A stretch of 64,000 bases of DNA. Source: an uncultured delta proteobacterium. Lineage in GTDB: Bacteria > Myxococcota_A > Polyangia > Polyangiales > Houyiibacteriaceae. The notes under the pieces are model-generated. The model worked only from the letters and a program-made list of their open reading frames with translations, ran no database searches and had not been told where the DNA came from. Below, one piece after another: positions 12,005 through 44,970 of the stretch. Where the stretch lies: NCBI GenBank assembly GCA_963699755.1, contig CAVOVB010000001.1, positions 1 through 64,000 on the forward strand. The letters are read 5' to 3'. A program made the translations under genes and the position numbers. Within the stretch, counting starts at the first letter, position 1. Each line of letters opens with the position of its first letter.

Positions 12005-12019
12005 GCTGGCGTGCTGGAT

Positions 12020-18061: not shown

Positions 18062-18982
18062 CTATCCGCGAAACACGGAGGTGCGATGCCAGTCAAGCGC
18101 GGATTTGCTCGGCAGCAGCGGAGTGTCATCGGGCGTGGTTAGTCGCTTGCCATTGAACCCATAGTATGAACGTCCATTTTCGAAGTCCTGGCGTAGGCGG
18201 CGGCCAACGACGAACCGCAGGTCCTTGTCGACGGTGACGTATCCGCGATCGAAGAGCCGATGAAGGTCCGCGCGAAGTAGCAGCCCATTTCGGACCTCGT
18301 GCTTGCCTCCGCGGGCGTACGGAACGATGTGGGCAGCGTCGAGGACGGGGATAGAGTGCTCCCCGGTTACTGCACACGCACGGTCGTAGGCGTCGAGAAC
18401 TCGGATCTTGAAAATGCCTTGCCCGAGACGCGGCACAATGGTCGTCGGCTTCCCGTATCGTGCTTCCTCTTCCCCTGCGAGCGTGGTGCCGGTCGTCTGT
18501 CCGGCAACTCGCGCGAGGCATTCCGTCCAAACCCTCAAGCCCTCCCCCGTCGACAGGTCATAGCTAGCGCCGGTCTGGATCGTGCGCTTCCAATCACTGG
18601 GAGCGGCCACCCAGTGCTCGGGATCGAAAAAGACCGCCTCGGCGATCAAGCAGCACCCAATGCGGCCGCCCGGATCGCCTGCAATCCGAGCATCTTTTCG
18701 AATCCGCGAGAGCCGGCGCTGGAGCTCTGCGAACGAAGCGACTCCGTTCGCTTGCTCAAAAGTCTCCCACGCGAGCCAGTCCGGGAGAACGGAAAACCCA
18801 GCAAAGTAGCCGAAGCCCGCGATAGCGTGATGGGGAGCTTTGAGCTTAAATAGGAATGGGGTCCCGATGTCGAGGCGAACCGGGCGCGCCGAAGGGCGCC
18901 AGAAATTCGCATCCTGCGGGCCTGGACGGGCGCGGAGGTGCTCGTACCATCCGCTGTCAGTGACAGCGATATATCCTTTCAT
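18062..18982 (-). CDS. HNH endonuclease with N-terminal PUA-like domain (putative modification-dependent restriction enzyme)
   Basis: PRLGQGIF..RVLDAY..CAVTG...LDAAHI.P...GG.H...NGLLLRADLH.LFD.G; N-terminus VTD..W....NFW.P. Confidence 0.85.
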   Translation of the reverse strand: MKGYIAVTDSGWYEHLRARPGPQDANFWRPSARPVRLDIGTPFLFKLKAPHHAIAGFGYFAGFSVLPDWLAWETFEQANGVASFAELQRRLSRIRKDARIAGDPGGRIGCCLIAEAVFFDPEHWVAAPSDWKRTIQTGASYDLSTGEGLRVWTECLARVAGQTTGTTLAGEEEARYGKPTTIVPRLGQGIFKIRVLDAYDRACAVTGEHSIPVLDAAHIVPYARGGKHEVRNGLLLRADLHRLFDRGYVTVDKDLRFVVGRRLRQDFENGRSYYGFNGKRLTTPDDTPLLPSKSALDWHRTSVFRG

Positions 18983-19063
18983 GCAGCGGCGAGACTAACA
19001 CCAAAACACTCTGTAGAAGGCCCGCCAATGCGGCGCGCACTTCCATGCCACTCTAAAGACCTC

Positions 19064-20323
19064 CTAGCCGTGTAGGGCCAGCCGCAACTCCCGGAGCAGC
19101 CCAATGCGGTCACAGTGGATGTCCCGACTGATGTCCAAGAACTCGACTCGAACGCGCGTACCGAGCTCGCCACCCTCCAAGGTTAGAACCTCTCTCTGCG
19201 CGCCGGCTGTCTTTGGAAACAGCAGCACGTTCTCCGGGCAATCGTAGCGACGTGCATACGCATGGAGCTGGTAGACGTCCGCTTCGGATGGCTTGGTCGC
19301 CCGATCGCCGTCGAGTGCCTTCCACTTGGTGTCTAGGATGCGAGCGGTCCGGTTGCTGGAGTCGGAGATCAACACGTCCGGCTTCAGTTTGTACCGCCCC
19401 CGCCCTTGTTCATCCCGAAGCAGATCTCTCCGCATCCGCTTTGCCTGGATGTGTACGCGGGAGCGCTCGAAGCCCAGCTCGTGCGCGTGTCGACGAATGA
19501 GGCGCGCAACGAACTCCTCGAAGAGATCGTTCATGGGCACCAACAGGGAGAACGTGGGTGTTTCGCCTCCGCGTGGAGCCGGGGTGCCATCGAAAAGAAC
19601 CAGGCGGCAGAAGTCCAGAAGGTCTCGAAAGCGTTCGTTCTGTCGGTTCAGTCGAAGACGCAAGAAATTTTCGCGCGTGATCTCTCGATCGGTGACGTTC
19701 GCCATGACGAGAATCGCCTCGCGAAGTTCGCGCTGCGTGGTCCTGTTGCCGGTCTGCTTGAGGAGGACCCGGCACGTGCGCTTCAAGATGTGGTTGACTG
19801 GGGTGTCTGCTAGAAACTCGTCGTAAGCGACGTAGACCCGCTCGGAATGGGCGAGGTTCCTTCGGAGGTGGACCGGCAGCACGATCTTGCCGCGGACGAA
19901 GCCCGTGTTCTCTTCACGTCGCACGTACTCTTGATCCAGGCCACGGCGTAGTTCGTTGAGAAGTCGGCCCGAAAACACCGCAATGAGGGCCTCCAGGATG
20001 GGCCGCTTCTCGAGCAAGAGGGTGGCGATGTCGCGCTCCCGAATAGGGAGGCGACGGCAAACGGACATCATTAGAAGGAGGTTCCTTCTGGCTTGGCCCT
20101 GCTCCGCGTCCGTCTTGGGCAAAATCTCGATCTGCAGACCGGGGATCTGGACAACGCCCACCCAGTTTCGGGCTCGGACGTAGCCGATCCGGCTCCAGTC
20201 AAATGCCGTCGTGCCGCTGGACCTCGCGAAGCGCTCGTCGAAGTGCTGAAGGCGGGTGCACAGACCTGAACCGAGGCGCTTTCGCGGTATTCGTTCGAAC
20301 TCGGTGACGCTGAGGTGCTTCAT
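19064..20323 (-). CDS. mcrC: McrC family restriction nuclease subunit
   Basis: NWVGVVQ...IEILPK, MNDLFEEFV, KPD....ILDTKWK, DVYQLHAY; ATGA overlap with mcrB. Confidence 0.9.
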   Translation of the reverse strand: MKHLSVTEFERIPRKRLGSGLCTRLQHFDERFARSSGTTAFDWSRIGYVRARNWVGVVQIPGLQIEILPKTDAEQGQARRNLLLMMSVCRRLPIRERDIATLLLEKRPILEALIAVFSGRLLNELRRGLDQEYVRREENTGFVRGKIVLPVHLRRNLAHSERVYVAYDEFLADTPVNHILKRTCRVLLKQTGNRTTQRELREAILVMANVTDREITRENFLRLRLNRQNERFRDLLDFCRLVLFDGTPAPRGGETPTFSLLVPMNDLFEEFVARLIRRHAHELGFERSRVHIQAKRMRRDLLRDEQGRGRYKLKPDVLISDSSNRTARILDTKWKALDGDRATKPSEADVYQLHAYARRYDCPENVLLFPKTAGAQREVLTLEGGELGTRVRVEFLDISRDIHCDRIGLLRELRLALHG

Positions 20324-23193
20324 GAACTCTGCGTACCGGCGAGCGCGTTGAAGAACTGCGAGAGATTGGTCGCATCGGCCGCTTCAAAATCGGGGTTGAC
20401 CTGAAAGCGTAGTTTGGTCTCGTAGTCGTCGACGTCACCAAGGATGCCTTCTGCGTCAAGCTCGTGCACTGTGAGGATCGGTCTAGTGTTCCGGGTGCGA
20501 CCCTCGTCAAACGGGCACCCCAGGACAAGACCTATCTTGGACCAATCGTCATAGAAATACTCTTGGAGCAACGGAATCAGGCGGTCGAGAAAGACCCGAC
20601 GCAGGTCGTCTAGGGTCTTCACGTTCAAGAGGTAGGCATGCCCGAGGGTGTGGTCGCGGTCGTAGAGCAGCTCGATGCGCTCGTTGATCGTTTCGAGCAG
20701 CTGCGCGACATCTACTCCGTCGATGACCCCGCCCTTCCCAACGAGACTGCGTACGACGGCGGAGTTGGGCATCATCTCAAGAAAGCGAAAACGGCGACGG
20801 AGTGCCGTGTCGAGAAACGCGATGGACCGGTCGGCGGTGTTCATCGTGCCAATCACGTAGAGGTTCGAGGGGACGCCGAACTCTGTACCGGAATAGGGCA
20901 GGATCGCTCGCAGCTCATTGGCTGCGCCGAGGCGCTTGTCAGGCTCGAGGAGCGTGATGAGCTCGCCGAGGACCTTGGCGATGTTGCCCCGGTTGATCTC
21001 GTCGATGATGAGGACATATCGACGAGGCTTCGAAGGCTGCTCGGGGGAGAGGACGCTTCTGAGCCCCTCTAGCTTCAAGACCTTGGGCTTGAGCTCATAG
21101 ATGGTGGCCTGGGAGAAGACCTTTTTCATGATGATGTCGCTGCTACGGCTCTCGTCGAGAACCAAGAGCCACTCGACAGGTCGCGCCTGAGAGTAGTCTT
21201 CGCGATCAATGTGGAAGTAGTCGCCCGTTACACGGCCGATGGCGCGGAACTTGAGGTTTCCGTCGCTGACGACGAGCAGATCGCCGACGGATATTCTGTT
21301 CTTGAAGCGATCGACCGCTCGGATGGCAAACTCCTTTGCCGGATCGCCCTCCTGCCGTGATCGAAAGCGCTCGGCAACGGCGTCCTGTGTGTCGCAGCCG
21401 GAGAAATCGATGGCGCCGCCCCAACCAAGGAGAACCCAATTCTCCTCTATCGCCTCGTCATAAACCCACTCCTCTTGGGCGTCCCAGGTTGCACCCAGTG
21501 ACATCTTCCAGACCTTCGTTTTCTCCAAGTCCAGCTCGAACGTCGGGGCCGGCTTTGGGCCTACGAGCTCGGCGCGCTCGCAGATGCGCCGGAAGACGCC
21601 CGACTTGCACTCATAACGAACGGCCGAGGTCTCCGACGTCTCACTGTCCGATTCCTTTTCTTCGTCGGTCAGAACTGGTCGGATTCCCTCGACAAACTCC
21701 TCGTAGCTATAGGATTGGTGAAACGTGACGAAGGCCACCTGCTCGCTTTCACGAAGTTCGCGAAAGCGCTTCATGACCGCGTTTCGGCCCGCCGGCGCGG
21801 AGCCATCGATGATTTCGAGGGCACGTTGCGCGGTTATGTAGGTCTTTCCGGTCCCGGGAGGGCCGTAGTAGATGACGTTGAGGTCATCTCTGCGTTCCAT
21901 AGTCTTCCCTGACGGCTTGATCCCAAGGGCTTGCGCCATTTCGTCCGGCAACTCGGACGGGTTCAGGTGATCTGCCAAGATAGCAACTGCTTCGGCGGGG
22001 ATACCGTAGAGGTAACCTTGGTTGACCCGTCCGGTGTCATTGACTGGACCTCTGTCGAGCTCCATTTCCGCCAAGCGAGACTGAACCTCGACCAGCGGAA
22101 TCGGCTCCGCAAGCTCCACGTAGTCACAGTCGGCTCTCCATCCAGACACATCCCATTCGACGGGCGGCAGCTCTGGCGGGCGCTCCGCATCGCGTCCCGG
22201 CTCGGTAGCGATTGAGACTGCGCGTATGGCGCCATCCTCGTAGTGGAAGATGATGTCACCAGGGGAGACCCGATTCACGTTCTCCCAGAAGTAGTAGGGA
22301 CTCGCTCCCGATTTCGTACGTTGCGGAGCCCAGATGTAGCCTCCGTCGCGCTCCGCCGCGTAGGTCTTGCCTTGATTGACCCACCAGAATCTGCGGTCGT
22401 TGGTGGGCGATGGGTCGATCCACCACTGCCCATGGAATTCCTCACCATAGAAATCGATTCTTTCATCTCTACCCTTCTGCAGCGCTTGGCGAATTGCGTA
22501 GATCGCTTGATCAACATCGTCGTAACGCTTGGTTAGAAGGTGTTTGAACCCCTCCACGATCAGCTTCTTGTGCTTGCGAGATACGATGATTTCGAAATGC
22601 TCGGGATGCGCGTAGTGGCACAGGGCGTGTCGCTGGGCGTTCGCGCCGGTCACAGCATCTTTGTAAACGAGTGCTTTGAAACTCCATGGATCTCGCAATA
22701 GGGACTCTTGCTCTGCACTGGAAAGTGCCTTCCAGGCCCGCATGAACGAGATTTGCTGAAAAAGGTAGATGGGCCGTCGTGAATTGAATGCGGGGCCCGG
22801 ACTGCAGAGGCCGCCGTCGAGCGCCGACACGAGGTTCTCAGGCACGTCCACCGGTTCACTCATCAAGTTGAGAACTTGCTGGACGGCTTCCAGCTTCGAC
22901 GTAGCCTTGACCCTAACGGTGATTAGCAGGTTAAGAAACAGCATTTCCGCGCATAGCTGCACGGCGCCATCACTCGAGTCCTTCAGTTGCTTCTCAAGTT
23001 TGTGGATGAATGAGTCTTTGGTCACATCGGGCTTTTCGACGAAGTCCCGATTGAGTTCGTCGAGATTCGCCGCAGACCAGATTTGCCTTCCGGGTGTGAA
23101 AATCGAACCATCTGACTTCAGCGCTTGTTCGATCCAGAGTCGGAACACGCCGTAGACCGCCTTCTGCGCAGGCGTGATATCTCGCAATGCCAC
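20320..23193 (-). CDS. mcrB: McrB family AAA+ GTPase with EVE/PUA-like domains
   Basis: YGPPGTGKT, FHQSYSYEEFVEG, IDEINRGN, GTMNTADRS, PLLQEYFYDDW; WWVNQ..TY..E..GGYIWAP domain upstream of the GTPase. Confidence 0.9.
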   Translation of the reverse strand: MALRDITPAQKAVYGVFRLWIEQALKSDGSIFTPGRQIWSAANLDELNRDFVEKPDVTKDSFIHKLEKQLKDSSDGAVQLCAEMLFLNLLITVRVKATSKLEAVQQVLNLMSEPVDVPENLVSALDGGLCSPGPAFNSRRPIYLFQQISFMRAWKALSSAEQESLLRDPWSFKALVYKDAVTGANAQRHALCHYAHPEHFEIIVSRKHKKLIVEGFKHLLTKRYDDVDQAIYAIRQALQKGRDERIDFYGEEFHGQWWIDPSPTNDRRFWWVNQGKTYAAERDGGYIWAPQRTKSGASPYYFWENVNRVSPGDIIFHYEDGAIRAVSIATEPGRDAERPPELPPVEWDVSGWRADCDYVELAEPIPLVEVQSRLAEMELDRGPVNDTGRVNQGYLYGIPAEAVAILADHLNPSELPDEMAQALGIKPSGKTMERRDDLNVIYYGPPGTGKTYITAQRALEIIDGSAPAGRNAVMKRFRELRESEQVAFVTFHQSYSYEEFVEGIRPVLTDEEKESDSETSETSAVRYECKSGVFRRICERAELVGPKPAPTFELDLEKTKVWKMSLGATWDAQEEWVYDEAIEENWVLLGWGGAIDFSGCDTQDAVAERFRSRQEGDPAKEFAIRAVDRFKNRISVGDLLVVSDGNLKFRAIGRVTGDYFHIDREDYSQARPVEWLLVLDESRSSDIIMKKVFSQATIYELKPKVLKLEGLRSVLSPEQPSKPRRYVLIIDEINRGNIAKVLGELITLLEPDKRLGAANELRAILPYSGTEFGVPSNLYVIGTMNTADRSIAFLDTALRRRFRFLEMMPNSAVVRSLVGKGGVIDGVDVAQLLETINERIELLYDRDHTLGHAYLLNVKTLDDLRRVFLDRLIPLLQEYFYDDWSKIGLVLGCPFDEGRTRNTRPILTVHELDAEGILGDVDDYETKLRFQVNPDFEAADATNLSQFFNALAGTQSS

Positions 23194-23284: not shown

Positions 23285-23557
23285 CTACAACAACATCTCC
23301 ACATCACCCTCCCCCGCGCCTCGCACTCCACCCCGGGCTTCCTCCGCTTCCCGTCACAATGCTCGTGAATGATCACGTGCAGCCGCGTGCGCGCGCGCGA
23401 CATGCCCACGTACGCCACCCCCCGATACCCGTCGTCGTCGATGTCGGTGAGTCCGGCGAGGATAACGACTCCGTTTTCTAGGCCCTTGAAGCCGGAGACG
23501 ATGGACCAGGTGATGGTTTGGAGGGACGCGCTGCCGAGGTGGGGGGCGTCGTCTTCG
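23285..23557 (-). pseudogene. helicase 3' fragment copy R1 (UvrD-C-like)
   Basis: Translates EDDAPHLGSASLQTITWSIVSGFKGLENGVVILAGLTDIDDDGYRGVAYVGMSRARTRLHVI, then a frameshift to EGDVEMLL*; highly similar to the copies at 29024 and 29924. Confidence 0.85.
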
Positions 23558-26500
23558 CTATTCTGGTCGAGGGCCTAAGAGCTCGGAGTCAAGTGTGCCG
23601 TCGTTCCAGAAGAGGATCACATAGATACTCCATGCGCGGTCAAGGATGGACTGAGCCTTCTCTGTCAACCGCTTGAGCTCGAAGTGGTCCAGCACGGGTC
23701 GGTAGAGCTCTTCCTTTGCGATCGGAGCAGTCGCAGCCAGCTGCTTTCCGATCTCAAACATTGCCGCTGCGATCTCCGATGGGGGGATCTCGTTTAGGTT
23801 GCGACCGTTGCGTGGTCGCAGATTGACCTGGGGTAAACCCGCACTGCGGACGATCTGATCATCCGGATCGGCGCTGTTGTATTCGTTGGCTTCGACGAGA
23901 ACTTCCTCGCGGACTAGCGCATCGAGAGCACGACTGAGGCTTTCGCGCACAGGCTTCGATGCGCGACCGAGGCCACAGCGACGACGGTAGATCTCAATTG
24001 CGTAGTGACGCGGCATGGGGCCGAGCTCCTCGACTGCATGGGTGAGGCTCTTCTTCAGCTCATCCATGGAGGCGCCACGGGGATCGGGATAGAGGTGCTC
24101 GGGAGCAAATTTGTCAGTAGGCACGGCTTTTAAGGTGTCATCCTCTAGATTCGCCGGAGTTGGGGGGACGAAGGCTCGTGCTCGCGGAGATAGGGGCGGC
24201 GGCGCTTCGGGGTCACCCTGAGGGAAGATGTCCGCCTCCGGGACAGGCACTGGCTCTCTTCCGGTTGGATAGATGCCCAAGTTCTCTAGCTCATCCCAGA
24301 GCCCCTCAAGAGCGCCGTCCGGATCGCGGTAGTAGTTGCCTCCTCTCACACGCCAGAACGTCCAGCCGCAACGCTCCAGCTGACGCTGCCTGCCCATATC
24401 CGCGTCGTACTGCTCGGGGCCGTGCCATTGGTCGCCGTCGCATTCGACCGCCAGGCGACCTTTCATACCTTCTACGACGAGGTCGATGCGGTACTCTGCC
24501 ACTTCGTACTGCGGCCGGACCCGATAACCGCGGTCAACGAGCTTCAGAAACACATCGACCTCAAACCAACTGTCGAATGGCGACGGCTGCATCCCGTGCT
24601 GTCGGCTCTGCGACGTTGCGCGTCGACGCAGTTCTTCAACCTCGAGCCCCTCGACGGCGTCTTGCTCGACTTTCGGGTTGCGGCAGTACTCGAGCAAATC
24701 TCGCCTAAGGCCCTTGGGCGAGAGATCCTCGAGTCCGACAGAGTGAAACAGCCACATCTGGTCTTGAGCACGGCTTGCCGCAACGTTAAAGCGGCGTTTG
24801 TGATTCTCTCCGGACAGCGTCCCCATGCGCTTGTTCGGCGCAGAGACCATGCTTAGGAAGATGACGTTTCTCTCGTCTCCTTGGAACTCATACGCATCGC
24901 CGCAGGACAAGCGCCGCCGCTCGATCTCCTCCGGTCCCAGCCTCTCAATCAGCAGTTGATCTATGTGATGAGCCTGGTGGTCCCCGAGAAGGGAGATCAC
25001 GCCCATCGTTTTGTCCTCGTATTCTGGCAGCTCGCAGAGCTCGACGATCTTGTCGACGATTGCTTCCGCTTCGGGCGGGTTGACGCGGTTTCGCTCGCCC
25101 TCAACGTATCCGTCGTGAACGCGCACGGCAGTGACAACTGGCTCTAGGCGGTCGGCCCCATACTGGCGAAGAGGAATCAACGGCTCATGGCCGTAACAGA
25201 GATTGTTCGAGTATTGGATAATCTCCGGCATGCAGCGGAAGTGTTCACGAAGCCGGACGCTGTTGTGAAACCTGACATTCGCCTGACTGAAGAAGCTGTT
25301 GTCGAGGTCGTAGAGCTGGCTCATGGGGATATCGCCGAGGTGCCGCCTGGCAAGCGCTTCGACCGCCTCTTTGTTCTGCCCGACATACTCGGGAGCGATC
25401 TGCTGCTCGTCTCCCACAACGATCACCTGCTTGCCAATGTAGTGCAGGAATAGAGCCTCCAAACCGGACTGGCTCGCCTCATCGACGATCACGACGTCGA
25501 ACGTATCCGTTGCGGGATCGATCGTCTCGACGACGCGATACAGAGGCATGATCCATGCTGGGATGGAAGGTCGGCATTTTGCCAGGTAGTCTCGGGCGAC
25601 TTTCACATACTTGGAGGCGCGCTTGCTTCGACCCGTACCGATCTTCTTGACCGCCTGCATCCAAGCCTTTAGGTAAGCCTGCGCCCCGGGGTTGTCTTGG
25701 AGACGAGAAACGCAATGGCCCCATGCTTTCTCCGCCGCCAGCTCAGCTATGAAGCCTTGGAGCTCTCCGGTCAGGCGCCGGCGATCCGCCTCGAGGTTCG
25801 CCCCGTATTCGGGGTCGTGACGTTTGGTGAGCCAGCGGTCAGCAACGTGCCACGCCCACGCCTTGTCGATTGATCGCAACCTTTCGTACCAAGACTCGTC
25901 GTCTCGAGTGTGGGCAATCGTTTCGTCGAGCCCCGGCAACTTAGACTCGGTGAGCTTCGAAATCTGTTTACGTTGAACGAGGCGCACTCGATCTTGCCAG
26001 ATGTCTTGGATGGCAGTGTACGCACGCGAATAGGATTTCGGATCGCGCTGATGGATTGCCTCAACAAGCTCCAGGACGCGTGAATGCTCCTGGTATTCGA
26101 CCGAAGGCTCAGTAAAAGGGTAGGAGAGCTGGGTCAGCTTGTGTCCGACCGCTTCCCTCACTCGAAGCGCGGCCAGGTGCGTGAGGGTGGCGTCCAAGCG
26201 TCGGACGCTCTCGATGTCGTGCCACCGAGGTGCGCTGATGCCGCGTATGCCTCTTGAAAGTTCTTTTGCTTGGATGACCGCGGCGTGCAGTGCGAGACCT
26301 CCGTCGATCGGCTCGCAGCGGTCTTCGTATCGCGCGAGAATCTGGAAGGCACGGCCGGTTGGGGGGGAGTCAACTTGCTCCCAGGACTGGGATAGGGCGC
26401 GGAGATGACATTGGATGTCGGCCCAGGCCCATATGTGTCGGATAGCGCGAGGGTCATTGCAATCTCGACCTCCTACTTTCAGCTCGTCAACAATGTACTG

Positions 26501-28858
26501 ACGCTCTTTGACGACTCGCGGTCGCCCGAACAAGCCTGTGAGCTTGCCGCCCCCTTCTACATGCTCGAGGAGTACTTTGGCGTCGTCACGGATTGTTGCG
26601 AAATCGTACGAATCGTGGCCGGTCACCTGAATGTCGAAGGATTCCGACTCGTGTTCCTTCACCGCGTTCACGTGCTCGTGCGTGGCCAGACGCAACTCGC
26701 TCCAGAATCTGTCTTGGTCAGCGAGGACCTCATTGGCCATTCGCCCAACCCATGGATACGAGTAGGCGCAGATATCGCTGTACTCCGATATCACGGCGTG
26801 CACAGCCTTCCCGTAGGCTTCGAGGTCGGCGTCTCGGTTGCCGCGGAGCTGCGCCTGGTCGTACTGCAACGCTGCTGTGGTCTCCTGGAGGCGGGCATTC
26901 GCGGAGGCTTCCTCGCGGACCAACTTGGCAAACTCATCGGGCGTAGCGACCGTTTCGAGCTCGGGGACGGAAGCAGCTACCTCGCGGGCCCGTGCGGGGG
27001 TGATCTCCCGATGGAAACGGAAAAGGGCAATCGCTTGTTCGGGAGAAACACCACAGTCGCCGGCAGGATCAGGGTCCTTCGCAGCTACGAGGGATATCCA
27101 TCCGAACTTGGCCTCCTCTGCCTTGAGCCGGGCTGCGATTTGCTGAGTGGTGCCCGAATAGGCTCGCCCCGCTAGGTCGTGCTCCACCACATCCGACTCC
27201 CGCAACGACCGAATCCTTGCCTCGGTTCGCGCGAGCTCGGCGCGGTGCCCTTGAACTCGCGCCTCCCAATCCGCCAGCCTTCGTTCATGCTGTTGGGCAT
27301 TCCAGTGGTTGAGCTTGTGGGTGATCCCATGGACCGAGTCTTCGAGCTCTCCGAGCGAAGCCCTGTCGTTCCCAAGCAGAATAACGGAGAGGTCGGTCAC
27401 CTCGGGCGGGACCTTGTCCTTCAAAACCCTGAGGGCGCGCGCGGTTTGGCTGGTCACGAGCACTCGCTTTCCTGATGCGAGGAGGTGACAGACCAGGTTC
27501 GCAATCGTGTGGGACTTGCCCGTACCGGGCGGCCCCTGAACGAGCACACCGGGGTTGTCTGCCAGCTGGCGAATGATTTCTCGCTGCTCCTGGTTTGACG
27601 GCAGCGGGAAGTAGAGCTTGTCGACATCGGCTGCGTCGCGCGAGGCGCCAGATGTCTCGGCATTGTTGGAAGCTGCCGCGCCCCCGGCGGGCGCCCCCTC
27701 GATATCTACGAGCGGGATGACTCCCTCTGGGATCGCCTTCCCGCTTTCAACGCGCGCCACCAACTTCTTGTAGAGCTCTAGGAACCCCCGATCGGAACGC
27801 TTTCGCAAGATGAGTGCCGGTGCGAACTGCACTGTTGGAATCGGGGCAGCCATTCCACTCCGCTCCAGGGTGTCTTCGTATTCACCGTCGCCCTCCCCGA
27901 GGGAGTGAATCCATGACTTGAGGGATGATTCGACGGCTTCATTGCCCCAAATATCGTCGCCGACCTTCGCGATTGACTCCTCGAATTTGTCCTCGATCTC
28001 CCCTCCGGGGCGCTCCGCGGGCTCCAGCATGTCGTGCTCGAGACTTGGCTTGGCCCCTTCGCCGGCTGCGGTGACCGAAATCACGCCGCGTGCGGCATCG
28101 AACTCAACGCTTGTCTGCGCGGTGATCAGGTGGCGAAAGACCTCCTGTCCAGAGCCGGGTCGCCACTTGAGTAACCCCAGCCCGATGACTACTTCGTATG
28201 ACTCACCGAGCTCGGCCTGCTGTTGGTGCAGGTGGAAAAGTCTGCCGTAGATTTTCTTGACCCGTTGCTTGCGGCGATCGATCTCGGCCCACGGCAACCA
28301 CTGGTCGCGAAGATACGCCTGCCAAGCCGAGGTTACGTCCGGGCGGTCTTCGAGCTCGATGAAGCGAGGGGGTGCGTCCTCATCTGCGCTCTCGCCGTCG
28401 AAACCTGGGGGCGATGGCAGCGCAATCTGGTGATATATCTCCGGCTCCTCGCGATCTGATTTGCTGACTGTTGCCGTGTTGACCCACTCTTCAAGGGTCG
28501 TCGGAATGCGAGGAGGCGCGGTCAGCTTGGGCTTCTTGACTTCGATCCAAGGGCGTTCTTCTTCCGTGTCGCGGTGCGGGTCCCATGCGAGACAGAAACA
28601 TTCGGCTTCCTCCGGGATGTCGGACAGCCAGAGGACCTCTTCGTAGGAACTCAGACTGCGAACGATCTTTGTCCGGAGTTGCACAAACTCCCGAAGGAAG
28701 GTGAACAAGCGATGCGCTCTGTCGTGCACCATTGCCTGACGCGGATCGAACTGCTCGACGGGGTCGACTGAGGCCGCTGGGGGCTGCGATTTGGGCACTA
28801 CGAGCCTCAGAGGCTCTTCCTCGCCCAACCCAGCGATATCCTCGTCCTCAGTTGCCAT
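23558..28858 (-). CDS. large SF1 (UPF1/DNA2-like AAA_11/AAA_12) helicase fused to a Vsr/DUF559-like endonuclease; probable defence protein
   Basis: VQGPPGTGKSHTIAN, FDVVIVDEASQ, VGDEQQI, LREHFRC, FQGDER, FNVAASRA, then FDSWFE.DV...V.PQ..V..YRIDLVV....LAVECDG..WH...D..RQ..LER.GW.F.R. Confidence 0.85.
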   Translation of the reverse strand: MATEDEDIAGLGEEEPLRLVVPKSQPPAASVDPVEQFDPRQAMVHDRAHRLFTFLREFVQLRTKIVRSLSSYEEVLWLSDIPEEAECFCLAWDPHRDTEEERPWIEVKKPKLTAPPRIPTTLEEWVNTATVSKSDREEPEIYHQIALPSPPGFDGESADEDAPPRFIELEDRPDVTSAWQAYLRDQWLPWAEIDRRKQRVKKIYGRLFHLHQQQAELGESYEVVIGLGLLKWRPGSGQEVFRHLITAQTSVEFDAARGVISVTAAGEGAKPSLEHDMLEPAERPGGEIEDKFEESIAKVGDDIWGNEAVESSLKSWIHSLGEGDGEYEDTLERSGMAAPIPTVQFAPALILRKRSDRGFLELYKKLVARVESGKAIPEGVIPLVDIEGAPAGGAAASNNAETSGASRDAADVDKLYFPLPSNQEQREIIRQLADNPGVLVQGPPGTGKSHTIANLVCHLLASGKRVLVTSQTARALRVLKDKVPPEVTDLSVILLGNDRASLGELEDSVHGITHKLNHWNAQQHERRLADWEARVQGHRAELARTEARIRSLRESDVVEHDLAGRAYSGTTQQIAARLKAEEAKFGWISLVAAKDPDPAGDCGVSPEQAIALFRFHREITPARAREVAASVPELETVATPDEFAKLVREEASANARLQETTAALQYDQAQLRGNRDADLEAYGKAVHAVISEYSDICAYSYPWVGRMANEVLADQDRFWSELRLATHEHVNAVKEHESESFDIQVTGHDSYDFATIRDDAKVLLEHVEGGGKLTGLFGRPRVVKERQYIVDELKVGGRDCNDPRAIRHIWAWADIQCHLRALSQSWEQVDSPPTGRAFQILARYEDRCEPIDGGLALHAAVIQAKELSRGIRGISAPRWHDIESVRRLDATLTHLAALRVREAVGHKLTQLSYPFTEPSVEYQEHSRVLELVEAIHQRDPKSYSRAYTAIQDIWQDRVRLVQRKQISKLTESKLPGLDETIAHTRDDESWYERLRSIDKAWAWHVADRWLTKRHDPEYGANLEADRRRLTGELQGFIAELAAEKAWGHCVSRLQDNPGAQAYLKAWMQAVKKIGTGRSKRASKYVKVARDYLAKCRPSIPAWIMPLYRVVETIDPATDTFDVVIVDEASQSGLEALFLHYIGKQVIVVGDEQQIAPEYVGQNKEAVEALARRHLGDIPMSQLYDLDNSFFSQANVRFHNSVRLREHFRCMPEIIQYSNNLCYGHEPLIPLRQYGADRLEPVVTAVRVHDGYVEGERNRVNPPEAEAIVDKIVELCELPEYEDKTMGVISLLGDHQAHHIDQLLIERLGPEEIERRRLSCGDAYEFQGDERNVIFLSMVSAPNKRMGTLSGENHKRRFNVAASRAQDQMWLFHSVGLEDLSPKGLRRDLLEYCRNPKVEQDAVEGLEVEELRRRATSQSRQHGMQPSPFDSWFEVDVFLKLVDRGYRVRPQYEVAEYRIDLVVEGMKGRLAVECDGDQWHGPEQYDADMGRQRQLERCGWTFWRVRGGNYYRDPDGALEGLWDELENLGIYPTGREPVPVPEADIFPQGDPEAPPPLSPRARAFVPPTPANLEDDTLKAVPTDKFAPEHLYPDPRGASMDELKKSLTHAVEELGPMPRHYAIEIYRRRCGLGRASKPVRESLSRALDALVREEVLVEANEYNSADPDDQIVRSAGLPQVNLRPRNGRNLNEIPPSEIAAAMFEIGKQLAATAPIAKEELYRPVLDHFELKRLTEKAQSILDRAWSIYVILFWNDGTLDSELLGPRPE

Positions 28859-29023
28859 GTGTTCGCCGGAGGAACCCTACCAGATTGCGAACCGCTGGGG
28901 TGGGTGTAGTGGTGGGGCGCAAATAATTCGTTCGCCGCTCGATAGGCCGGGACGAGTCTTCTACACAAGTCTAGAGCTCCCCGCCGTGCGGCACTAGCCG
29001 GCGGTCAAAACCAAGACTGAAGA

Positions 29024-29395
29024 TCAGAACACCATCTCCACATCACTCTCCCCGCGCTGCCGCCACTGACTCTCGCGCTCCCGGCGCCTCTCATCGCACT
29101 CCTCATAAGTAATCACGTGCAGCCGCGTGCGTGCGCGCGACATGCCCACGTACGCCACCCCCCGATACGAATCGTCGTCGATATCGGTAAGTCCGGCGGG
29201 GATGACGACGTCGTTTTCTAGGCCCTTGAAGCCGGAGACGATGGACCAGGTGATGGTTTGGAGGGACGCGCTGCCGAGGTGGGGGACGTCGTCTTCCGAG
29301 AGGCGGCGGAGGCCCATGCGCTCGAGGTGTTTCTCTTCGTCGCCGCGCGGGGTCTTGAGGAGCAGGACGGGGATGCGGCCGGGTGGGACGTGTGG
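29024..29395 (-). pseudogene. helicase 3' fragment copy R2 (longest contiguous copy)
   Basis: HVPPGRIPVLLLKTPRGDEEKHLERMGLRRLSEDDVPHLGSASLQTITWSIVSGFKGLENDVV...YVGMSRARTRLHVI...DVEMVF*; lacks the N-terminal helicase motifs. Confidence 0.85.
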
Positions 29396-29779
29396 CTATG
29401 GGTTGAGCCAGCCGCCCTTCTGGTTGTCTTCCCAGTCGATGACGATGGCGTTGAGGGCCGCGACCGTGGTTGGCGCCAACAAGACGTAGGCGAAAGCGGT
29501 GAAATAGGGGAGACCGGCTTGCCAGCTCAGCAGCCAGCCGATGAACGCGAACGCGGCAATGAAAAGCCCAAACATCTTCCAGTTGGTCCCCTCGATCTGG
29601 CTAGCTGCAGGGTCGTAGTGTGGATTCCGCGTGTCGAACCAGTGGCCGATCAGGGGGGCGGCAATCCAGTTGAAGCTCAGCACGCCAAGGGGCAACCAGA
29701 ATGGGAGCTCCGTCGTCATCGCGAAAAGGACGGTGAAGAAGACGACGAGCACAGCAAACGGGACTAGGTGGCGAAGCAC
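29396..29779 (-). CDS. small multi-pass membrane protein (about 4 TM)
   Basis: Hydrophobic helices; GTG start ~29779 chosen because the upstream in-frame sequence is repeat-derived. Confidence 0.6.
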   Translation of the reverse strand: MLRHLVPFAVLVVFFTVLFAMTTELPFWLPLGVLSFNWIAAPLIGHWFDTRNPHYDPAASQIEGTNWKMFGLFIAAFAFIGWLLSWQAGLPYFTAFAYVLLAPTTVAALNAIVIDWEDNQKGGWLNP

Positions 29780-29789
29780 GGGCTCATTG

Positions 29790-29893
29790 TACTTCAGGTG
29801 TTGGCGGGGGAACTGCAAACGCACCGCGCGGCCTGTCGTTTTTGTGGTGTTTTTGAGCAACTCCGGGCGGCGGTGGTCGATGAAGGGGTATGC
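29790..29893 (-). repeat. motif-A repeat segment (PFIDHRRPELL-coding) plus a probable helicase-derived stretch
   Basis: CCCTTCATCGACCACCGCCGCCCGGAGTTGC recurs in diverged form at ~31350-31377, ~32136-32168 and ~34010-34046. Confidence 0.75.
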
Positions 29894-29923
29894 GATTTGT
29901 TTGCCCTGCTGTTTCGTCGACCC

Positions 29924-30186
29924 CTACAACAACATCTCCACATCCCCCTCCCCCCTCGCCTCCCACTCCACCTCGCGCTCCCGTCGCTTCGCGTCGCACT
30001 CCTCGCGAATGATCACGTGCAACCGCGTACGCGCGCGCGACATGCCCACGTACGCCACCCCCCGATACCCATCGTCGTCGATATCGGTAAGTCCGGCGAG
30101 GATGATGACGTCGTTCTCTAGGCCCTTGAAGCCGGAGACGATGGACCAGGTGAAGGTTTGGAAGAGCAGGACGGAGATTCGGCCGG
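29924..30186 (-). pseudogene. helicase 3' fragment copy R3, internally deleted
   Basis: GRISVLL joined directly to FQTFTWSIVSGFKGLENDVIILAGLTDIDDDGYRGVAYVGMSRARTRLHVII...DVEMLL*; lacks the ~30 codons present between these blocks in R2. Confidence 0.85.
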
Positions 30187-30189
30187 CAC

Positions 30190-30507
30190 CGTCACGAGAT
30201 CCACTCGTTCGCGCGGTCGCTGCGGAGGGCGCGGGAGAACATCCGCGATGCGTTGTCGCTTTGGTACGACGATGCGGCGACCGCCACGATTGTCGACCGG
30301 GTCGAGCTCGAGCCGGCGCTGACAGAAGAACTGGCGGAAACAGAAGAGCTGGCGAGGCTGCACTCGGACGTATCGCGGAAGCTGACGGCGAAGCGGCGGC
30401 GGGCGGTGAAGGCGCTTCAGCGGAGTGGCATGGGGACGAGGGACATCGCGGACTTGCTCGAGCTTTCGCAGCAGCGAGTGAGTCAGATCGCGCGGGGGAC
30501 GCGCTAG
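30190..30507 (+). pseudogene. N-terminally truncated HicB-like antitoxin with C-terminal HTH
   Basis: In frame HEIHSFARSLRRARENIRDALSLW...GMGTRDIADLLELSQQRVSQI; no proper start, abuts R3; no HicA partner seen. Confidence 0.55.
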
Positions 30508-30544
30508 ACTTGGCCCGAACGATGCGCAGCGGGTGAGTTGACGC

Positions 30545-30850
30545 TCAGGCCGCACGCGGGCCGCCCTCGGGGGATTCGATGCTCAAGCGCAGGCCCAAGG
30601 CTTCGATGATGAGGCCGAGGCTCGAGAGGCGGGGGTTTCCGTTTTCGGAGAGGGTTCGGTAGAGGGTTTCGCGGTTGAGGCCGGTGGCTTCGGCGAGGTG
30701 CGCCATGCCGCCTTGGGCGTCGACGACGTCGCGAAGGCCGATGAGGAAGACCTCGTCGCCTTCTTCGAGGCAGGCGGTGAGGTAGCCGGCAGCGCGAGCT
30801 GGGTCTTTGAGCCGTTTGAGCAGCTGATCACGATAGGGGATGGTTGGCAT
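30545..30850 (-). CDS. addiction module antidote (HI1420-like HTH antitoxin)
   Basis: AAGYLTACLEEG...LRDVVDAQGGMAHLAEATGLNRETLYRTLSENGNPRLSSL; ATG 30850 overlaps the toxin end. Confidence 0.85.
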   Translation of the reverse strand: MPTIPYRDQLLKRLKDPARAAGYLTACLEEGDEVFLIGLRDVVDAQGGMAHLAEATGLNRETLYRTLSENGNPRLSSLGLIIEALGLRLSIESPEGGPRAA

Positions 30851-31097
30851 TTCTATGATCCCTCCAGTAGCGCTGGGCACGAGCGATGTCGCGCGGCTGG
30901 GTCGCTTTGTCGCCGGCACAGAGCAGAAGGACTATCGCCCTTCCCTGCCTGCCGAAGTGCCCCGAGCGAAGGCGCGCGATACGGGCGTCGATTTTCTCGA
31001 TTGCGCGGAAGTCTCTCAGACGAGCGAGCCAATCGTTGAACGGTGAGCGGCCGTCGGGCGCCTGGTAGACGCGGACTTCGATTTCGCGCGGTATCAT
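30828..31097 (-). pseudogene. RelE/HI1419-like toxin with apparent in-frame internal deletion
   Basis: DGRSPFNDWL..LRD....I.ARI.RL..GHFG jumps to RQG..IVLLLCAGDK.TQ..DI; the ELRI..GPGYR.Y core typical of the family is absent. Confidence 0.7.
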
Positions 31098-31108
31098 GCG
31101 GATTGGGC

Positions 31109-31128
31109 ATGTAGCCTATAGGCTACAT
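31109..31128. promoter_or_regulatory. perfect 20-bp palindrome, putative TA autorepression operator
   Basis: ATGTAGCCTATAGGCTACAT just upstream of the toxin start at 31097. Confidence 0.7.
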
Positions 31129-31198
31129 TTGGAAGCCGGCCGAGTCAAGGGCTCGCAGCCGGAGTCCGAGGGGATATCGGCCGCTGTCGGCTGGAGTT

Positions 31199-31377
31199 GC
31201 GTGCGCGCGCGCGACATGCCCACGTACGCCACCCCCCGATACCCGTCGTCGTCGATGTCGGTGAGTCCGGCGAGGATAACGACGTCGTTTTCTAGGCCCT
31301 TGAAGCCGGAGACGATGGACCAGGGGATGTCGCCGCGCGGCGTCTTGGGGCAACTTCGGGCGGCGGTGGTCGATGAC
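31199..31377 (-). pseudogene. helicase 3' fragment copy R4 fused to motif A
   Basis: IDHRRPKL / KTPRGD / IPWSIVSGFKGLENDVVILAGLTDIDDDGYRGVAYVGMSRART; multiple deletions relative to R2. Confidence 0.85.
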
Positions 31378-31382
31378 CACAC

Positions 31383-31619
31383 GTGCCAACCGTGCTGCGG
31401 CGTGCGGGCTTCCGCGTGTTCTTCTTTAGCGACGAAGGATGGGAACCGCCCCATGTGCACGTAGAACGAGGTGGGGGTGTCGTGAAGTATTGGTTGAAGC
31501 CGGTGGCAATGGCATACTACCGAAACCTGACGTTCATGGAGCTGCGGCGCTCCATGCGGCTCGTGGAAGAGCATCGGGACTACCTGCTGGAGCAGTGGCA
31601 TGATTACTTTGGCACCTGA
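31383..31619 (+). CDS. DUF4160 family protein (putative TA component)
   Basis: MPTVLR..GFRVFFFSDEGWEPPHVHVE.G....KYWL.P...LLEQWHDYFG. Confidence 0.85.
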   Translation: MPTVLRRAGFRVFFFSDEGWEPPHVHVERGGGVVKYWLKPVAMAYYRNLTFMELRRSMRLVEEHRDYLLEQWHDYFGT

Positions 31620-31863
31620 AAATCCATTGGCGAAATGGGTCGAATTTGCGAACGGCGTGATGCGCGTGGCGCTCGAGGACGGCCGGAGGGTCGAAGTGCC
31701 CATCGAATGGTTTCCGCGACTTAGGGACGCGACACCAGAGCAGCGGAGGGACCTGCGACTCATCGGCGGCGGGATTGGGATTCATTGGCCGCAGCTCGAT
31801 GAGGACTTGTCGGTGCGCGGGCTGCTGTTTCCGCATCCGGAAGATGCGGAGCGGGTGGGTTGA
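31600..31863 (+). CDS. DUF2442 family protein (partner of DUF4160)
   Basis: V.LEDGR.V.VP.EWFPRL..AT.EQR....IGGGIGIHWPQLDEDLSVRGLL; overlaps DUF4160. Confidence 0.85.
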   Translation: MITLAPENPLAKWVEFANGVMRVALEDGRRVEVPIEWFPRLRDATPEQRRDLRLIGGGIGIHWPQLDEDLSVRGLLFPHPEDAERVG

Positions 31864-31883
31864 CTGAGTAGGTGCCGCACGGA

Positions 31884-32170
31884 CCGCGTGCGCGCGCGTG
31901 ACATGCCTACGTAGGCTACGTCTCGGTGCCAGTCGGTTTCGATGTTGGTGAGGGCGGCGAGGATGACGACGTCGTTTTCTAGGCCCTTGAAGGCGGAGCG
32001 GCCTTGGTAGGGGTGGAAGTCCACGGGGCGGCCGTCGACGCGGGCTTTGACGCGGTGGGTGGCGCCCGAGACGACGGCGGTTTGTAGCTTGTGGGCTACT
32101 GGCCGCGCGGCCTGCCGTTTGTGTCGTGTCTTTGTGCAACTTCGAGCGACGGTGGCGGATGAAGGGGTGT
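31884..32170 (-). pseudogene. helicase 3' fragment copy R5 (diverged allele) with motif A
   Basis: QTAVVSG..RVKARVDGRPVDFHPYQ / SAFKGLENDVVILAALTNIETDWHRDVAYVGMSRARTR; motif A at the right end. Confidence 0.8.
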
Positions 32171-32211
32171 GCCGAATACGATCCGGAGCTTGCGGTAAGC
32201 CCGTACGCTGC

Positions 32212-32241
32212 TTGACGTCGTTCACCAAGCAGGTGTACACT
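32212..32241 (+). promoter_or_regulatory. putative sigma70 promoter for a near-leaderless TA transcript
   Basis: TTGACG-N18-TACACT ending 4 nt before ATG 32246; imperfect inverted repeat GTTCACC-N5-GGTGTAC in the spacer. Confidence 0.5.
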
Positions 32242-32245
32242 TCAG

Positions 32246-32392
32246 ATGATCCGCCGCGTGGAGCTCACTAGGCGGGCCGAGAAGCCGGTGCGGAGGCTTG
32301 CAAGGCGTGTAGTCAGGAAGCTCAAGACTTGGACGTACCTCGTCGAAGAGATCGGTTTGGAAGAAGTTCGCGTGAGCAAGCATGGCTACTAA
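32246..32392 (+). pseudogene. RelE/HigB-type toxin remnant (48 aa, apparent internal deletion)
   Basis: Hand translation MIRRVELTRRAEKPVRRLARRVVRKLKTWTYLVEEIGLEEVR-VSKHGY*; lacks the HDEPL.G...RSIRL...YR core expected for such toxins; not in the ORF track. Confidence 0.6.
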
Positions 32393-32730
32393 GCGACGAA
32401 AGAGGCTTCGGCGCCCTGCTGCATCGGAAGGGTCAGATTGATGCGCTGGAGCTCCTCGAGAGCATCGACGGCCCGATGACCCTTGGCGATATGATTTGGA
32501 GCCTCCGGGACTGCGACGAGGTCAGCCAGGCTGAGTTTGCGCGACAGCTGGGCGTCAGCCGCTCGCATCTTTGCGATGTCGAGAAGGGGCGGAAGGTGGT
32601 GAGCCCCGAGCGGGCCGCCGCGTGGGCGAAGGTTCTTGGCTTCCCGCCAACGGTGTTCGTGAAGTTGGCGCTTCAGGAGCAGCTGGACCGGGCGGGGGTG
32701 AAGATGAACGTGGAGGTGGAGGCAGCGTAG
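32382..32730 (+). CDS. HigA-like XRE HTH antitoxin (start uncertain, possible 5' frameshift)
   Basis: GPMTLG..I.SLR.CDEVSQAEFARQLGVSRSHLCDVEKGRK.VSPERAA.WAK.LG; the ATG overlapping the toxin stop (32382) is out of frame with the body. Confidence 0.7.
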
Positions 32731-32812
32731 GGGACATATGCTGTGGGTGGCGCCGCAATTCTGGCGTTTCTAGACTTGTGATAAGACAGAATTGCCGTTC
32801 TTGGAGCTAGAA

Positions 32813-33571
32813 CTAGACAGGCTTGGCGTGGCCTTTGTCGATGAGCTCCTGATTCAGGTACCGCCCTTTCAAGAACGTGCTCTCGATGCCTTGGTTGTTG
32901 AAGGCGTAGAAGACGTGGCCGACGTAGCGGCGGCCGGCGGCGCCTTGCGCGGTGTCGCGTGGGGGGGCGTCGATGCGGGCGAGACGGATGGATTGGCGGC
33001 GGATGACTTCGAAGCCTAGGTCGATGTCGAGGAGGAGGGTGTCGGCGTCGATGACGTCGCGGACTTCGGCTTTGTAGAGGTAGCTCGGGTCGGTGGGGCG
33101 CTTGAGGACGATGGGCTTGCCCTTTTGTTGCCGTTGGGCGGAGTCGTAGCGGGCACCTTGGATGGCGGTGCGGAGGCGGGTGGCCGAGAGGGAGTCTTCG
33201 GCGGCGAGCTGTTCGTAGAAGGTGCGTTCGTTGGCGTCCTGGAGCTGCATGAGGATGCGGAAGTGGGCCCAGCTCAGGCCTTCGACGCGTGGGGGGCGTT
33301 TGTAGGTTTGGTAGAAGGTGACGGTGCGTTGGAGGGTGCGGAGGTCGATGGCTAGGTCGGCGGAGAGGTCGGCGAGGATGGCGTTGTGGAAGTTGGCGCG
33401 GGTGGTGAGCTTTTCCTTCGCGATGCGTTTGCCGATGGACCAGTAGCTTTCGAGGAGGGCTTGGGCGGCGGCGCGTTCGGCTTCTTGTTTGCCTTCCCCG
33501 ATGATTTGGCGGAGGTCGGCGAGGAGCTTGGTGTATTGGCGGGTGGTGAGGAGGTCGGTGGTGGGTGGCAT
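32813..33571 (-). CDS. DUF1016(YhcG)-N-like domain fused to a thermonuclease (SNase)-like domain, possibly internally deleted
   Basis: Y..LL..L..II...K......ESYW.IG.RI, LSWAHFR.L...D..ER.FY; then Y.A.V..VID.DTL...IDLGF......IRL..IDAP, RYVG, LNQEL...GHA. Confidence 0.7.
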   Translation of the reverse strand: MPPTTDLLTTRQYTKLLADLRQIIGEGKQEAERAAAQALLESYWSIGKRIAKEKLTTRANFHNAILADLSADLAIDLRTLQRTVTFYQTYKRPPRVEGLSWAHFRILMQLQDANERTFYEQLAAEDSLSATRLRTAIQGARYDSAQRQQKGKPIVLKRPTDPSYLYKAEVRDVIDADTLLLDIDLGFEVIRRQSIRLARIDAPPRDTAQGAAGRRYVGHVFYAFNNQGIESTFLKGRYLNQELIDKGHAKPV

Positions 33572-33625
33572 TTCGGCCCTGCGGGCCGATATTAGCATAG
33601 TGCCGGGCGTGCGCGCGCCCAGGGC

Positions 33626-33773
33626 CATGCGTTCGAGGTGCGTGTCTTCTTCGGGGCGTGGGGTCTTCACCAAGAGGACCGAGATGCGGCCCGGGGGGAC
33701 GGTGTCGCGGCGTAGGGTGGGTGTTTCGGCAGTTGAAGGTGAGGCGCAACACGCGCCGGAGGCATCCGATGAC
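33626..33773 (-). pseudogene. helicase internal fragment copy R6
   Basis: RLTFNCRNTHP (UvrD-like motif) then, after a frame change, LRRDTVPPGRISVLLVKTPRPEEDTHLERM, matching R2. Confidence 0.7.
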
Positions 33774-33778
33774 AGCGC

Positions 33779-33926
33779 GTGCCAACGGTGCTGCGGCGAG
33801 GCGGGTTCCGGGTGTTCTTCTTCAGCGACGAAGGATGGGAACCGCTCCATGTGCACGTAGAACGAGGTGGGGGCGTGATGCGGGTTGCTGTTTCCACATC
33901 CGGAAGATGCGCAGCGGGTGAGTTAG
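33779..33926 (+). pseudogene. doubly deleted duplicate of the DUF4160-DUF2442 pair
   Basis: First ~100 nt match 31383-31480, then GGCGTGATGCG matches ~31654-31664, then the tail matches ~31819-31863. Confidence 0.85.
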
Positions 33927-33936
33927 CCTCGAAAGA

Positions 33937-34046
33937 TGCGCGCGCGCGACATGCCCAGGTAGGTCACGCTTCGGTGCCCGTCGGTTTCGATCTCGGTGAG
34001 TGCTCTCGAGGAGCTTCGGGCGGGGGTGACCGATGAAGGGATATGC
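33937..34046 (-). pseudogene. helicase 3' fragment copy R7 with motif A
   Basis: AYPFIGHPRPKLL then LTEIETDGHRSVTYLGMSRAR; closest to R5. Confidence 0.75.
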
Positions 34047-34093
34047 GGGTGGCGTGGCTTCAACGGCTGTTCTGCGAGGCGCGATCGGCAGGA

Positions 34094-44358: not shown

Positions 44359-44930
44359 ATCATGTTGCTACGACAGGTGCAGGACTGGTCGAGCTCGAAG
44401 TCGCAATTGCCGGCTGCGTCTGGGACCAGGCAGCAGAACAACCCCGAGCCGCATTCGCTATTGTCTTCGCAGTCCGCCCCCTCAAACTCGCCGACCTGGC
44501 CGCCCGACGAGTAGGTCGAGCAATCTTCAACACATTGATTCAAGCTCGGCCCACAGTTGGCCGCGTCGAGGCAACAGAACGCGCCCAAGCTCGACGCCTG
44601 TGGATCGCAGCCGTTGTTGCTCGTGCATGTCGCGCCGAGGTCACCGCCCTTGCAAGCATAGTACTCGACCTCCCCCTCGGTGCGATCCAGCTGGCATGTC
44701 TGCTCGGCAGGGCACCCGGATTCCGCATCGCAACTACCGCCGCAGTCGATGCCCGAACGCCTGCAGATCCCGATCGTTGCAAAATCGTTGTCGCATGAGC
44801 AAGCCGGAGGGCAGTCGCCGTCGTTGATGCACTCAAACGAGCCCGGTTCGCCTGATTTGCATGAAGGACCGGCAGCCAAAAGAACGGCGAATGCGAGCAT
44901 CGCCGCGCCCGCTGAAATTTGGAACTTCAT
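44355..44930 (-). CDS. Cys-rich lipoprotein
   Basis: Lipobox-like AGPSC; C..D.DC / C..N.EC repeats. Confidence 0.7.
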   Translation of the reverse strand: MKFQISAGAAMLAFAVLLAAGPSCKSGEPGSFECINDGDCPPACSCDNDFATIGICRRSGIDCGGSCDAESGCPAEQTCQLDRTEGEVEYYACKGGDLGATCTSNNGCDPQASSLGAFCCLDAANCGPSLNQCVEDCSTYSSGGQVGEFEGADCEDNSECGSGLFCCLVPDAAGNCDFELDQSCTCRSNMM

Positions 44931-44970
44931 GATCCCTCCCTATCAAACGCCAGTCGAAAATGCCAGGGCG

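Follow-up and report, generated by a model that had tools for sequence, protein, structure and literature searches.

How do defence genes accumulate in a chromosomal array in which no integrase or transposase is found? The question is raised by a stretch of DNA from an uncultured delta proteobacterium of the family Houyiibacteriaceae, a sediment organism (assembly GCA_963699755.1), here called the window, which comprises the first 64 kb of contig C1 (CAVOVB010000001.1) of a 5.35-Mb genome in 11 contigs (G000). In its middle part, defence and toxin-antitoxin (TA) genes alternate with seven remnants of one helicase gene, R1 to R7 (Table 1). An earlier sequence-only reading regarded this array as a homology- or site-directed hotspot of cassette accretion with the helicase remnant as recombination handle. 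The comparison set consisted of 55 genomes of the genus, 16 genomes from the order's other families and a dataset of helicase loci on 68 contigs, including 47 metagenome loci; some of the loci have common junctions and are not independent. A spurious match inside drmMI of genome G014 was left out of the counts, contig-end pieces out of the junction counts, identical rows out of the trees and spectra, and sequencing runs with small word shares out of any statement on habitat.

It is evident that the remnants act as recombination joints. At window R5, window R7 and two joints of genome G023, an upstream neighbour of either the HigB-start or the HTH-TA-start type meets a downstream module of either the DUF2442-end or the MTEPN class, and all four combinations are found. 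Joint-plus-cargo units recur in new orders across genomes, as the proposed cargo turnover between relatives had foreseen, and the partners upstream and downstream of the repeats are incongruent, which is the criterion applied to the lpl cluster discussed below. R1 to R4 form a clade (100/90; the bootstrap is not fully settled). The body of R4 is 97.7% identical to R1 and is joined to a HI1419 junction common to G011, G022 and G023, while five same-junction copies elsewhere are only 80-90% identical to R4. An R1-like body with the junction of other genomes shows that sequence has been exchanged inside the G000 lineage. Remnants are also more alike within a contig than otherwise (89.9 vs 86.8%; permutation p=0.037), and cargo is enclosed by two direct-repeat remnants both in the window (R2, the 1766-aa gene, R1) and in L128, L130 and L134. 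Recombination via remnants is thus upheld by the four-gamete pattern and the chimeric R4, whereas the site-directed version of the proposal does not agree with the 78 classes of 5' junctions described below.

All seven minus-strand pieces were recovered by self-BLAST and profile searches, which bears out the co-oriented set of fragments first described. The copies are indeed diverged, with a pairwise identity of 73-96% among the six overlapping ones (the overlap of R6 is too small to score), and their deletions differ, R5 and R6 being made of joined pieces. Likewise, the two cargo genes ending at 23558 and 29396 have their stop codons as close to the next fragment as was claimed. A second co-oriented repeat, U, with four copies in the window, had been overlooked. 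A full-length parent gene is absent not only from the window, as had been seen, and a search of the entire 5.35-Mb genome yielded neither such a gene nor any further remnant copy. Private substitutions are distributed over codon positions 1, 2 and 3 as 72:60:57. This evenness indicates that the short pieces are pseudogene DNA in neutral decay, and it rules out that the remnants are small proteins.

The predicted NERD-UvrD-type parent was found in relatives as a gene for a NERD-nuclease/SF1-helicase of 582-590 aa (~585), matching the PADLOC model RTasNERD-Hel over nearly its whole length (E=1.5e-43). The R2 peptide has matches in 16 of the 55 genus genomes and in none of the 16 from the other families, and duplicated pieces occur on 23 of the 68 contigs, always on one strand per contig. 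Left (5') ends fall into 78 junction classes among 105 pieces, spread over parent nt 508-1660. For right ends the count is 70 classes (117 pieces); 25 coincide with the stop codon and 13 lie in nt 1650-1699 near the GCGCGCAC core, which is missing from several pieces. Piece coverage is maximal at nt 1550-1650, and several copies turn from C-rich to G-rich close to the palindrome. Some long pieces extend back to nt 508-1076; the 40 non-parent pieces located in contiguous stretches of genomes include none from before nt 1076 of 1761. Stop-precise ends were considered as a signal specific to the helicase and dropped, since, in a control, nearly all operons of the surrounding zone have a final gene whose neighbour switches exactly at the stop codon. 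A piece in G046 that resembled a solitary insertion in core DNA was likewise dropped, as N gaps flank it and a decayed remnant follows it downstream. Three helicase remnants stand behind low-GC genes in contig L102 (9974-12758), which is labelled as part of an archaeal bin and is likely chimeric or a case of transfer.

Contrary to the sequence-only reading, the role is not unique to the helicase remnant. The helicase is one of three handles, all of them from nuclease-type genes with a GC hairpin retained. U is ~100 bp long, antisense to part of an HNH-type gene (an assignment by resemblance, with no Pfam or NCBIfam match), and occurs in 21 of the 55 genus genomes. In full U copies a 20-bp palindrome precedes a run of T on the plus strand, an arrangement resembling a terminator. 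The third handle, HNH-A, comes from the interior of a long HNH gene and has five remnants at G000:C2:893850-902455 (L048). Each remnant includes a complete or partial GC hairpin and short tandem TGTCCAGATATCCG repeats within the coding sequence, resembling protein-binding sites. In G020 and G063, U joints lie in the same strand-skewed zone with essentially no helicase remnants, and 65 of the 67 joints formed by U or the helicase have the polarity of the skew.

The zone in question is ~165 kb long, and the window forms its right part. GC skew is near zero in 50-kb windows throughout the genome, except at C1 1-60 kb and C2 805-903 kb, where the plus strand is G/T-rich irrespective of gene direction and 3-kb windows reach +0.25 (SD 0.035). 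The repeats of the zone are 59 direct and 0 inverted. The right flank is a conserved kinase gene (C1:65374), the same in G000, G011, G023, G020 and G063; at this locus the zone is weak or absent in G046 and G062. Conserved flank and variable defence cargo, the marks of a core defence hotspot, are thus both present on the right-flank side. Proximity to the origin or terminus found no support as explanation, dnaA (C1:985,686) being 0.92-1.1 Mb away; a search with a dif-like pattern gave no match. With oriC near dnaA, leading-strand status in this one genome would fall to the C/A-rich strand, which is the reverse of the usual rule. HNH-A as a driver of the skew in cis is inconsistent with the data: among the 23 HNH-A loci examined, 4 lack the skew, all of them from the genus. 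DnaE2, for which a mutational signature has been described (PMC3901139, available in part), was rejected as a zone-specific mutator, as G:C to C:G tops the private changes within the zone (53/161) and also outside it (9/33), with a strand asymmetry of p=0.27 overall and 0.05 in genome-only rows. A dnaE2 gene with two upstream imuA-/imuB-like genes lies at G000:C1:1031742-1036951. A weakly skewed part of the zone (G000:C2:838396-841199, L045) contains DUF3768, RES/Xre and RadC genes, such as typically occur in regions of conjugative elements. The zone of G011 has two genes which we presume to be sbcC and sbcD by resemblance (L022 4375-8579; G011:C9:24375-28579).

Among the cargo that follows stop-ended copies are McrBC, RES-Xre, AbiE, Mrr and DUF6361-PLD-helicase systems, and the DNA behind such copies is less skewed (median 0.08, n=27) than that behind truncated ones (0.14, n=35; p=0.047, kin not being independent). 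In the window, the 1766-aa gene has a GC skew of 0.00 and is likely a recent arrival, and the HNH-McrC-McrB genes are likely cargo of the same slot, behind the R1 stop. That the array feeds a McrBC/DISARM island, as was suggested, could not be substantiated: McrBC resembles further cargo, and in G014 DISARM stands upstream of an intact helicase without any remnants. Most cargo labels proposed at first hold (SF1B helicase-MTES nuclease, HI1420, DUF4160, DUF2442, DUF1016_N), whereas HI1419 and RelE/HigB turned out to be internally deleted, HicA to be absent and the HicB-like gene to be truncated; the SNase match is weak and in a relative only. HicB and HigB are neighbourhood labels, with scores below the family cut-offs. 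Toxins of the three TA pairs at 30185-32730 are deleted or truncated, while the HI1420 and HigA-like antitoxins are intact. Elsewhere in the window, an FG-GAP repeat protein with internal DNA repeats is encoded at 53326-55149.

Table 1. Features of the window; for helicase remnants, nt refers to the parent gene.
Feature	Position	Strand	Description
Right part of ~165-kb strand-skewed variable zone	1-64000	.	continues into C2 ~803-903 kb; plus strand G/T-rich
DISARM class 1 drmA, B, C, D, MI, then UG21 reverse transcriptase	2565-18037	-	within skewed zone
HNH + McrC + McrB	18062-23193	-	behind R1 stop; skew 0.013 (unskewed)
R1	23285-23556	-	3' remnant, nt ~1477-1761, ends at stop codon, 1-nt deletion; then mcrB
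1766-aa SF1B helicase + MTES_1575 nuclease	23558-28858	-	Hhe/ProA-like, below cut-offs; stop 2 nt from R1
R2	29024-29391	-	longest remnant, nt 1394-1759, open frame, ends at stop codon
Small hydrophobic (membrane-like) protein	29396-29860	-	no Pfam/NCBIfam family; stop ~5 nt from R2
U1	29806-29908	-	antisense remnant of HNH-type gene, GC palindrome (CAGGCCGCGCGG core)
R3	29924-30165	-	nt 1520-1761, ends at stop codon
HicB-like antitoxin, 5'-truncated	30185-30507	+	HicA partner in G016, absent here
HI1419 toxin (internal deletion) + intact HI1420 antitoxin	30545-31097	-	
R4	31199-31330	-	nt 1529-~1662, recombinant copy
U2 (partial)	31337-31394	-	
DUF4160 + DUF2442 pair	31383-31863	+	
R5	31883-31998 + mid-gene piece 32003-32086	-	deletion joins nt 1253-1340 to nt 1548-1663
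U3	32090-32175	-	
RelE/HigB-like toxin with deletion + HigA-like HTH antitoxin	32240-32730	+	
DUF1016_N protein	32813-33571	-	252 aa vs 276-aa G023 copy; third positions extremely C-biased
R6	33608-33744	-	three joined pieces: nt ~1215-1256, 1381-1475, GCGCGCAC core
DUF4160 start deletion-fused to DUF2442 end	33766-33921	+	older duplicate of 31383-31863 pair
R7	33937-34000	-	shortest remnant, nt ~1594-1657
U4 (partial)	33998-34065	-	

What, then, makes the joints? Our preferred explanation, to which we give a probability of roughly 0.55, is that the remnants are pseudogene tails serving as self-renewing homology handles for general recombination, without a dedicated recombinase. In a first step, fresh defence DNA would be captured just 3' of the helicase stop codon, one end being anchored by homology in the 3' part of the helicase gene and the other entering the gene at a variable point by an illegitimate event or template switch; a duplication of 0.1-0.7 kb ending at the stop would result. 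In the second step, which the array itself shows, deletions eat into DNA that is not under selection, toxins and the 5' part of the helicase among it, as far as the ends of the selected genes, and the surviving pieces centre on a short GC palindrome. In the third, crossovers between remnants, probably RecA-dependent, remove and insert modules and change their order, in single genomes as well as from one genome to another, giving the reassortment observed, and also homogenise copies inside one genome. As two other nuclease-type gene remnants have the same role nearby, the process is a property of this strand-polarised zone of the chromosome.

Several points weigh against this explanation. The capture step is supported by end patterns, with no event observed, and homology-facilitated illegitimate recombination is very rare in E. 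coli conjugation, according to the available part of PMC3240628. Turnover at the stop codon is not peculiar to the helicase (25 classes among 34 copies), the corresponding figures being 10/14 for HI1420, 13/18 for HicB and 7/7 for VapC. The intact helicase gene is found downstream of the remnants in some cases (G011, G016/L129 and G043) and upstream of them in others (L131, L150, L140 and G046), so that no single direction of growth fits, and most intact genes are another allele than the remnants. The link to the palindrome comes from three genes and one allele contrast only, and over their length the R and U copies fold like shuffled sequences (z -1.9 to +1.9, six stretches). Finally, homology handles leave the strand skew unexplained.

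The skew would find a place in the main rival, a nuclease-driven or one-ended mobile system, which we consider unlikely. NERD-helicase or HNH proteins would nick near their own hairpin segments and prime one-directional strand-displacement or break-induced copying. Such copying would capture upstream DNA, skew the strand and leave copies that are truncated at the 5' side and have their right end fixed. The nuclease origin of all three handles with their retained hairpins, the protein-binding-like repeats of HNH-A, the co-orientation of 65 of 67 joints with the skew, the exclusively direct repeats and the C-rich to G-rich switch by the palindrome all agree with such copying. On the other hand, the helicase protein has no HUH or recombinase domain, and the four unskewed HNH-A loci of the genus are joined by five from other families that are not C-skewed. 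None of 25 distant NERD-helicase loci has a 3' array: in 22 the gene end has no local copy, and three short matches in two scored loci are not 3' arrays. The stop-precise ends are general in the zone, and the IS91-type islands of G000 are unskewed, with no such end in the window. It is equally unlikely that the locus is a recombinase-free cassette system, in which hairpin-nicking nuclease genes, strand-biased capture and remnants as joints would build an immune array on the 100-kb scale.

IS91-type elements themselves were searched for directly. An IS91/ISCR origin is ruled out for the window: Y2_Tnp matches occur at other loci only, none of them linked to the array, and the transposase-end repeats are absent from the window and present in parts of the G023 and G011 zones. 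The IS91-type end repeat has ~34 copies in G000 (C1, C2, C3, C5, C6, C7 and C11), and in that part of the G023 zone where the skew is weaker, six copies alternate with helicase remnants.

Still somewhat less likely is a passive graveyard, in which whole helicase genes are repeatedly gained and eroded and the 3' piece is kept as an insulator of its neighbours, perhaps by Rho-dependent termination in both directions. Both strands are C-rich on entry, remnants often start 3-90 nt past a co-oriented stop, 19 of 27 stop-ended copies are followed by a convergent called gene (two or three of these calls being shadow frames), and the long pieces back to nt 508-1076 are what eroding whole genes would leave. 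The R4 chimerism and the four-way reassortment are left unexplained by it, many remnants face divergent promoters with no transcript entering, and terminator-like sites occur at chance level (4 vs 4.5).

Tandem islands or an integron-like array at one att site, with the recombinase acting in trans or since lost, are improbable. Integron cassette arrays likewise consist of tandem small modules with many opposite-facing TA pairs, the order of which is shuffled between strains. The cargo here is typical of cassettes, 13 of the 70 classes of 3' ends cluster near the GCGCGCAC core, and ~20 tyrosine recombinase matches and one serine recombinase are found elsewhere in the genome. Unlike in integrons, there is no IntI, no attC fold and no fixed crossover, and the joints are coding remnants of variable length: the 78 5' classes have no common boundary, and the core is not present in every piece. 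The integron integrase model TIGR02249 gave no match over cut-off in 41 genomes. Domain searches confirmed the claimed lack of an integrase or transposase at the array, with none in the window; PF00589 and PF07508 have no match in the window or in C2 803-903 kb, the closest tyrosine recombinase matches being at C1:436 kb and C2:359 kb. A candidate attC half-site proved to be the DUF2442 3' end (stop region), with no attC-like fold. Tandem islands with one crossover, in which fragments lie downstream of a restored gene, are disfavoured by the 5' classes and by intact genes in the downstream-most place (G011, G016, G043 and L129). A miniature inverted-repeat element or classical insertion sequence, with terminal inverted repeats and fixed ends, is ruled out by the lack of inverted repeats and by the variable ends. 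No Y1 transposase was over cut-off, Rfam had no match for the repeats, and one DDE transposase is located at a distance of ~60 kb from the array, in the C2 portion of the zone, where the skew is weak. No viral relatives were found, and plasmid relatives are at 27-30% only among the 10 of 28 matches listed.

Mis-assembly of several strains into one contig is very improbable: G000 is an 11-contig bin with 9% contamination and many relatives' contigs break within the zone, but the copies are 4-27% apart with distinct flanks, short-read contigs from run X1 (possibly the source sample) bridge the R2, R4, R5 and R6 junctions with 0 differences (no piece covers the entire array), the architecture recurs on 23 of 68 contigs, and G061 is contiguous over the join of C2 end and C1 start. 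Joints in other runs (31860 to 30545, 33601 to 31429 and 29277 to 32025) are compatible with reshuffling in relatives; they come from mixed communities and were not scored as excision.

Known systems share some features with the preferred explanation, homology handles made of pseudogene tails. Like the locus described here, the core defence hotspots cDHS1 and cDHS2 of Pseudomonas aeruginosa are fixed loci beside conserved genes with variable defence cargo; a mobility gene is often missing from them (29% and 47% of sites) and homologous recombination was proposed for transfer (PMC10250203, available in part). They have tRNA or tmRNA landing sites at their flanks, whereas here no tRNA stands at the zone boundaries; the sole call, inside the zone (44866-44954), is an atypical 89-nt tRNA-Trp reported by ARAGORN that overlaps an open reading frame and is probably false. 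Neither multi-copy gene remnants as internal joints nor the skew are described for cDHS1/2 in the available part of that paper. In the tandem paralog cluster lpl of Staphylococcus aureus, recombination also takes place at a conserved stretch and units straddle gene boundaries (PMC2568036, in part); there intact paralogs shuffle their own halves, whereas here a dead gene tail is the handle and unrelated genes are shuffled. Homology-facilitated illegitimate recombination, with one homologous and one illegitimate end (PMC3240628), resembles the proposed first step, and in transformation-triggered tandem duplication at partial IS repeats short repeats seed duplications via unequal crossing-over, as may be the case here (PMC3784515). 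As far as described in the available parts, the latter two are single laboratory events, whereas the present array is long-lived. By analogy, the array may work like a core defence hotspot combined with lpl-type shuffling and homology-facilitated joining. The parent gene matches the model of the helicase associated with UG34 reverse transcriptase (PADLOC RTasNERD-Hel; PMC9226505, in part). In contrast to that association, the reverse transcriptase of the window is of the UG21 type, 19 kb off, and no link to the remnants was found; it directly follows drmMI of the class 1 DISARM operon (2565-4478). A literature search, with most subscription papers and supplements outside its scope, revealed no account of pseudogene tails acting as joints within a skewed zone.

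How defence hotspots are built without mobility genes is an open question (PMC10250203, in part). In the present genus the joints are countable, and both the crossover positions and the sequences that form handles can be mapped. Strong GC skew of a single sign together with direct repeats only, in a genome nearly without skew, marks the zone and is usable to find others. In practical terms, candidates for anti-phage genes can be drawn from the slot that follows the helicase stop, and several of these belong to no family. If the copying by nuclease nicking were true, the locus would be an analogue of the integron without integrase or attC.

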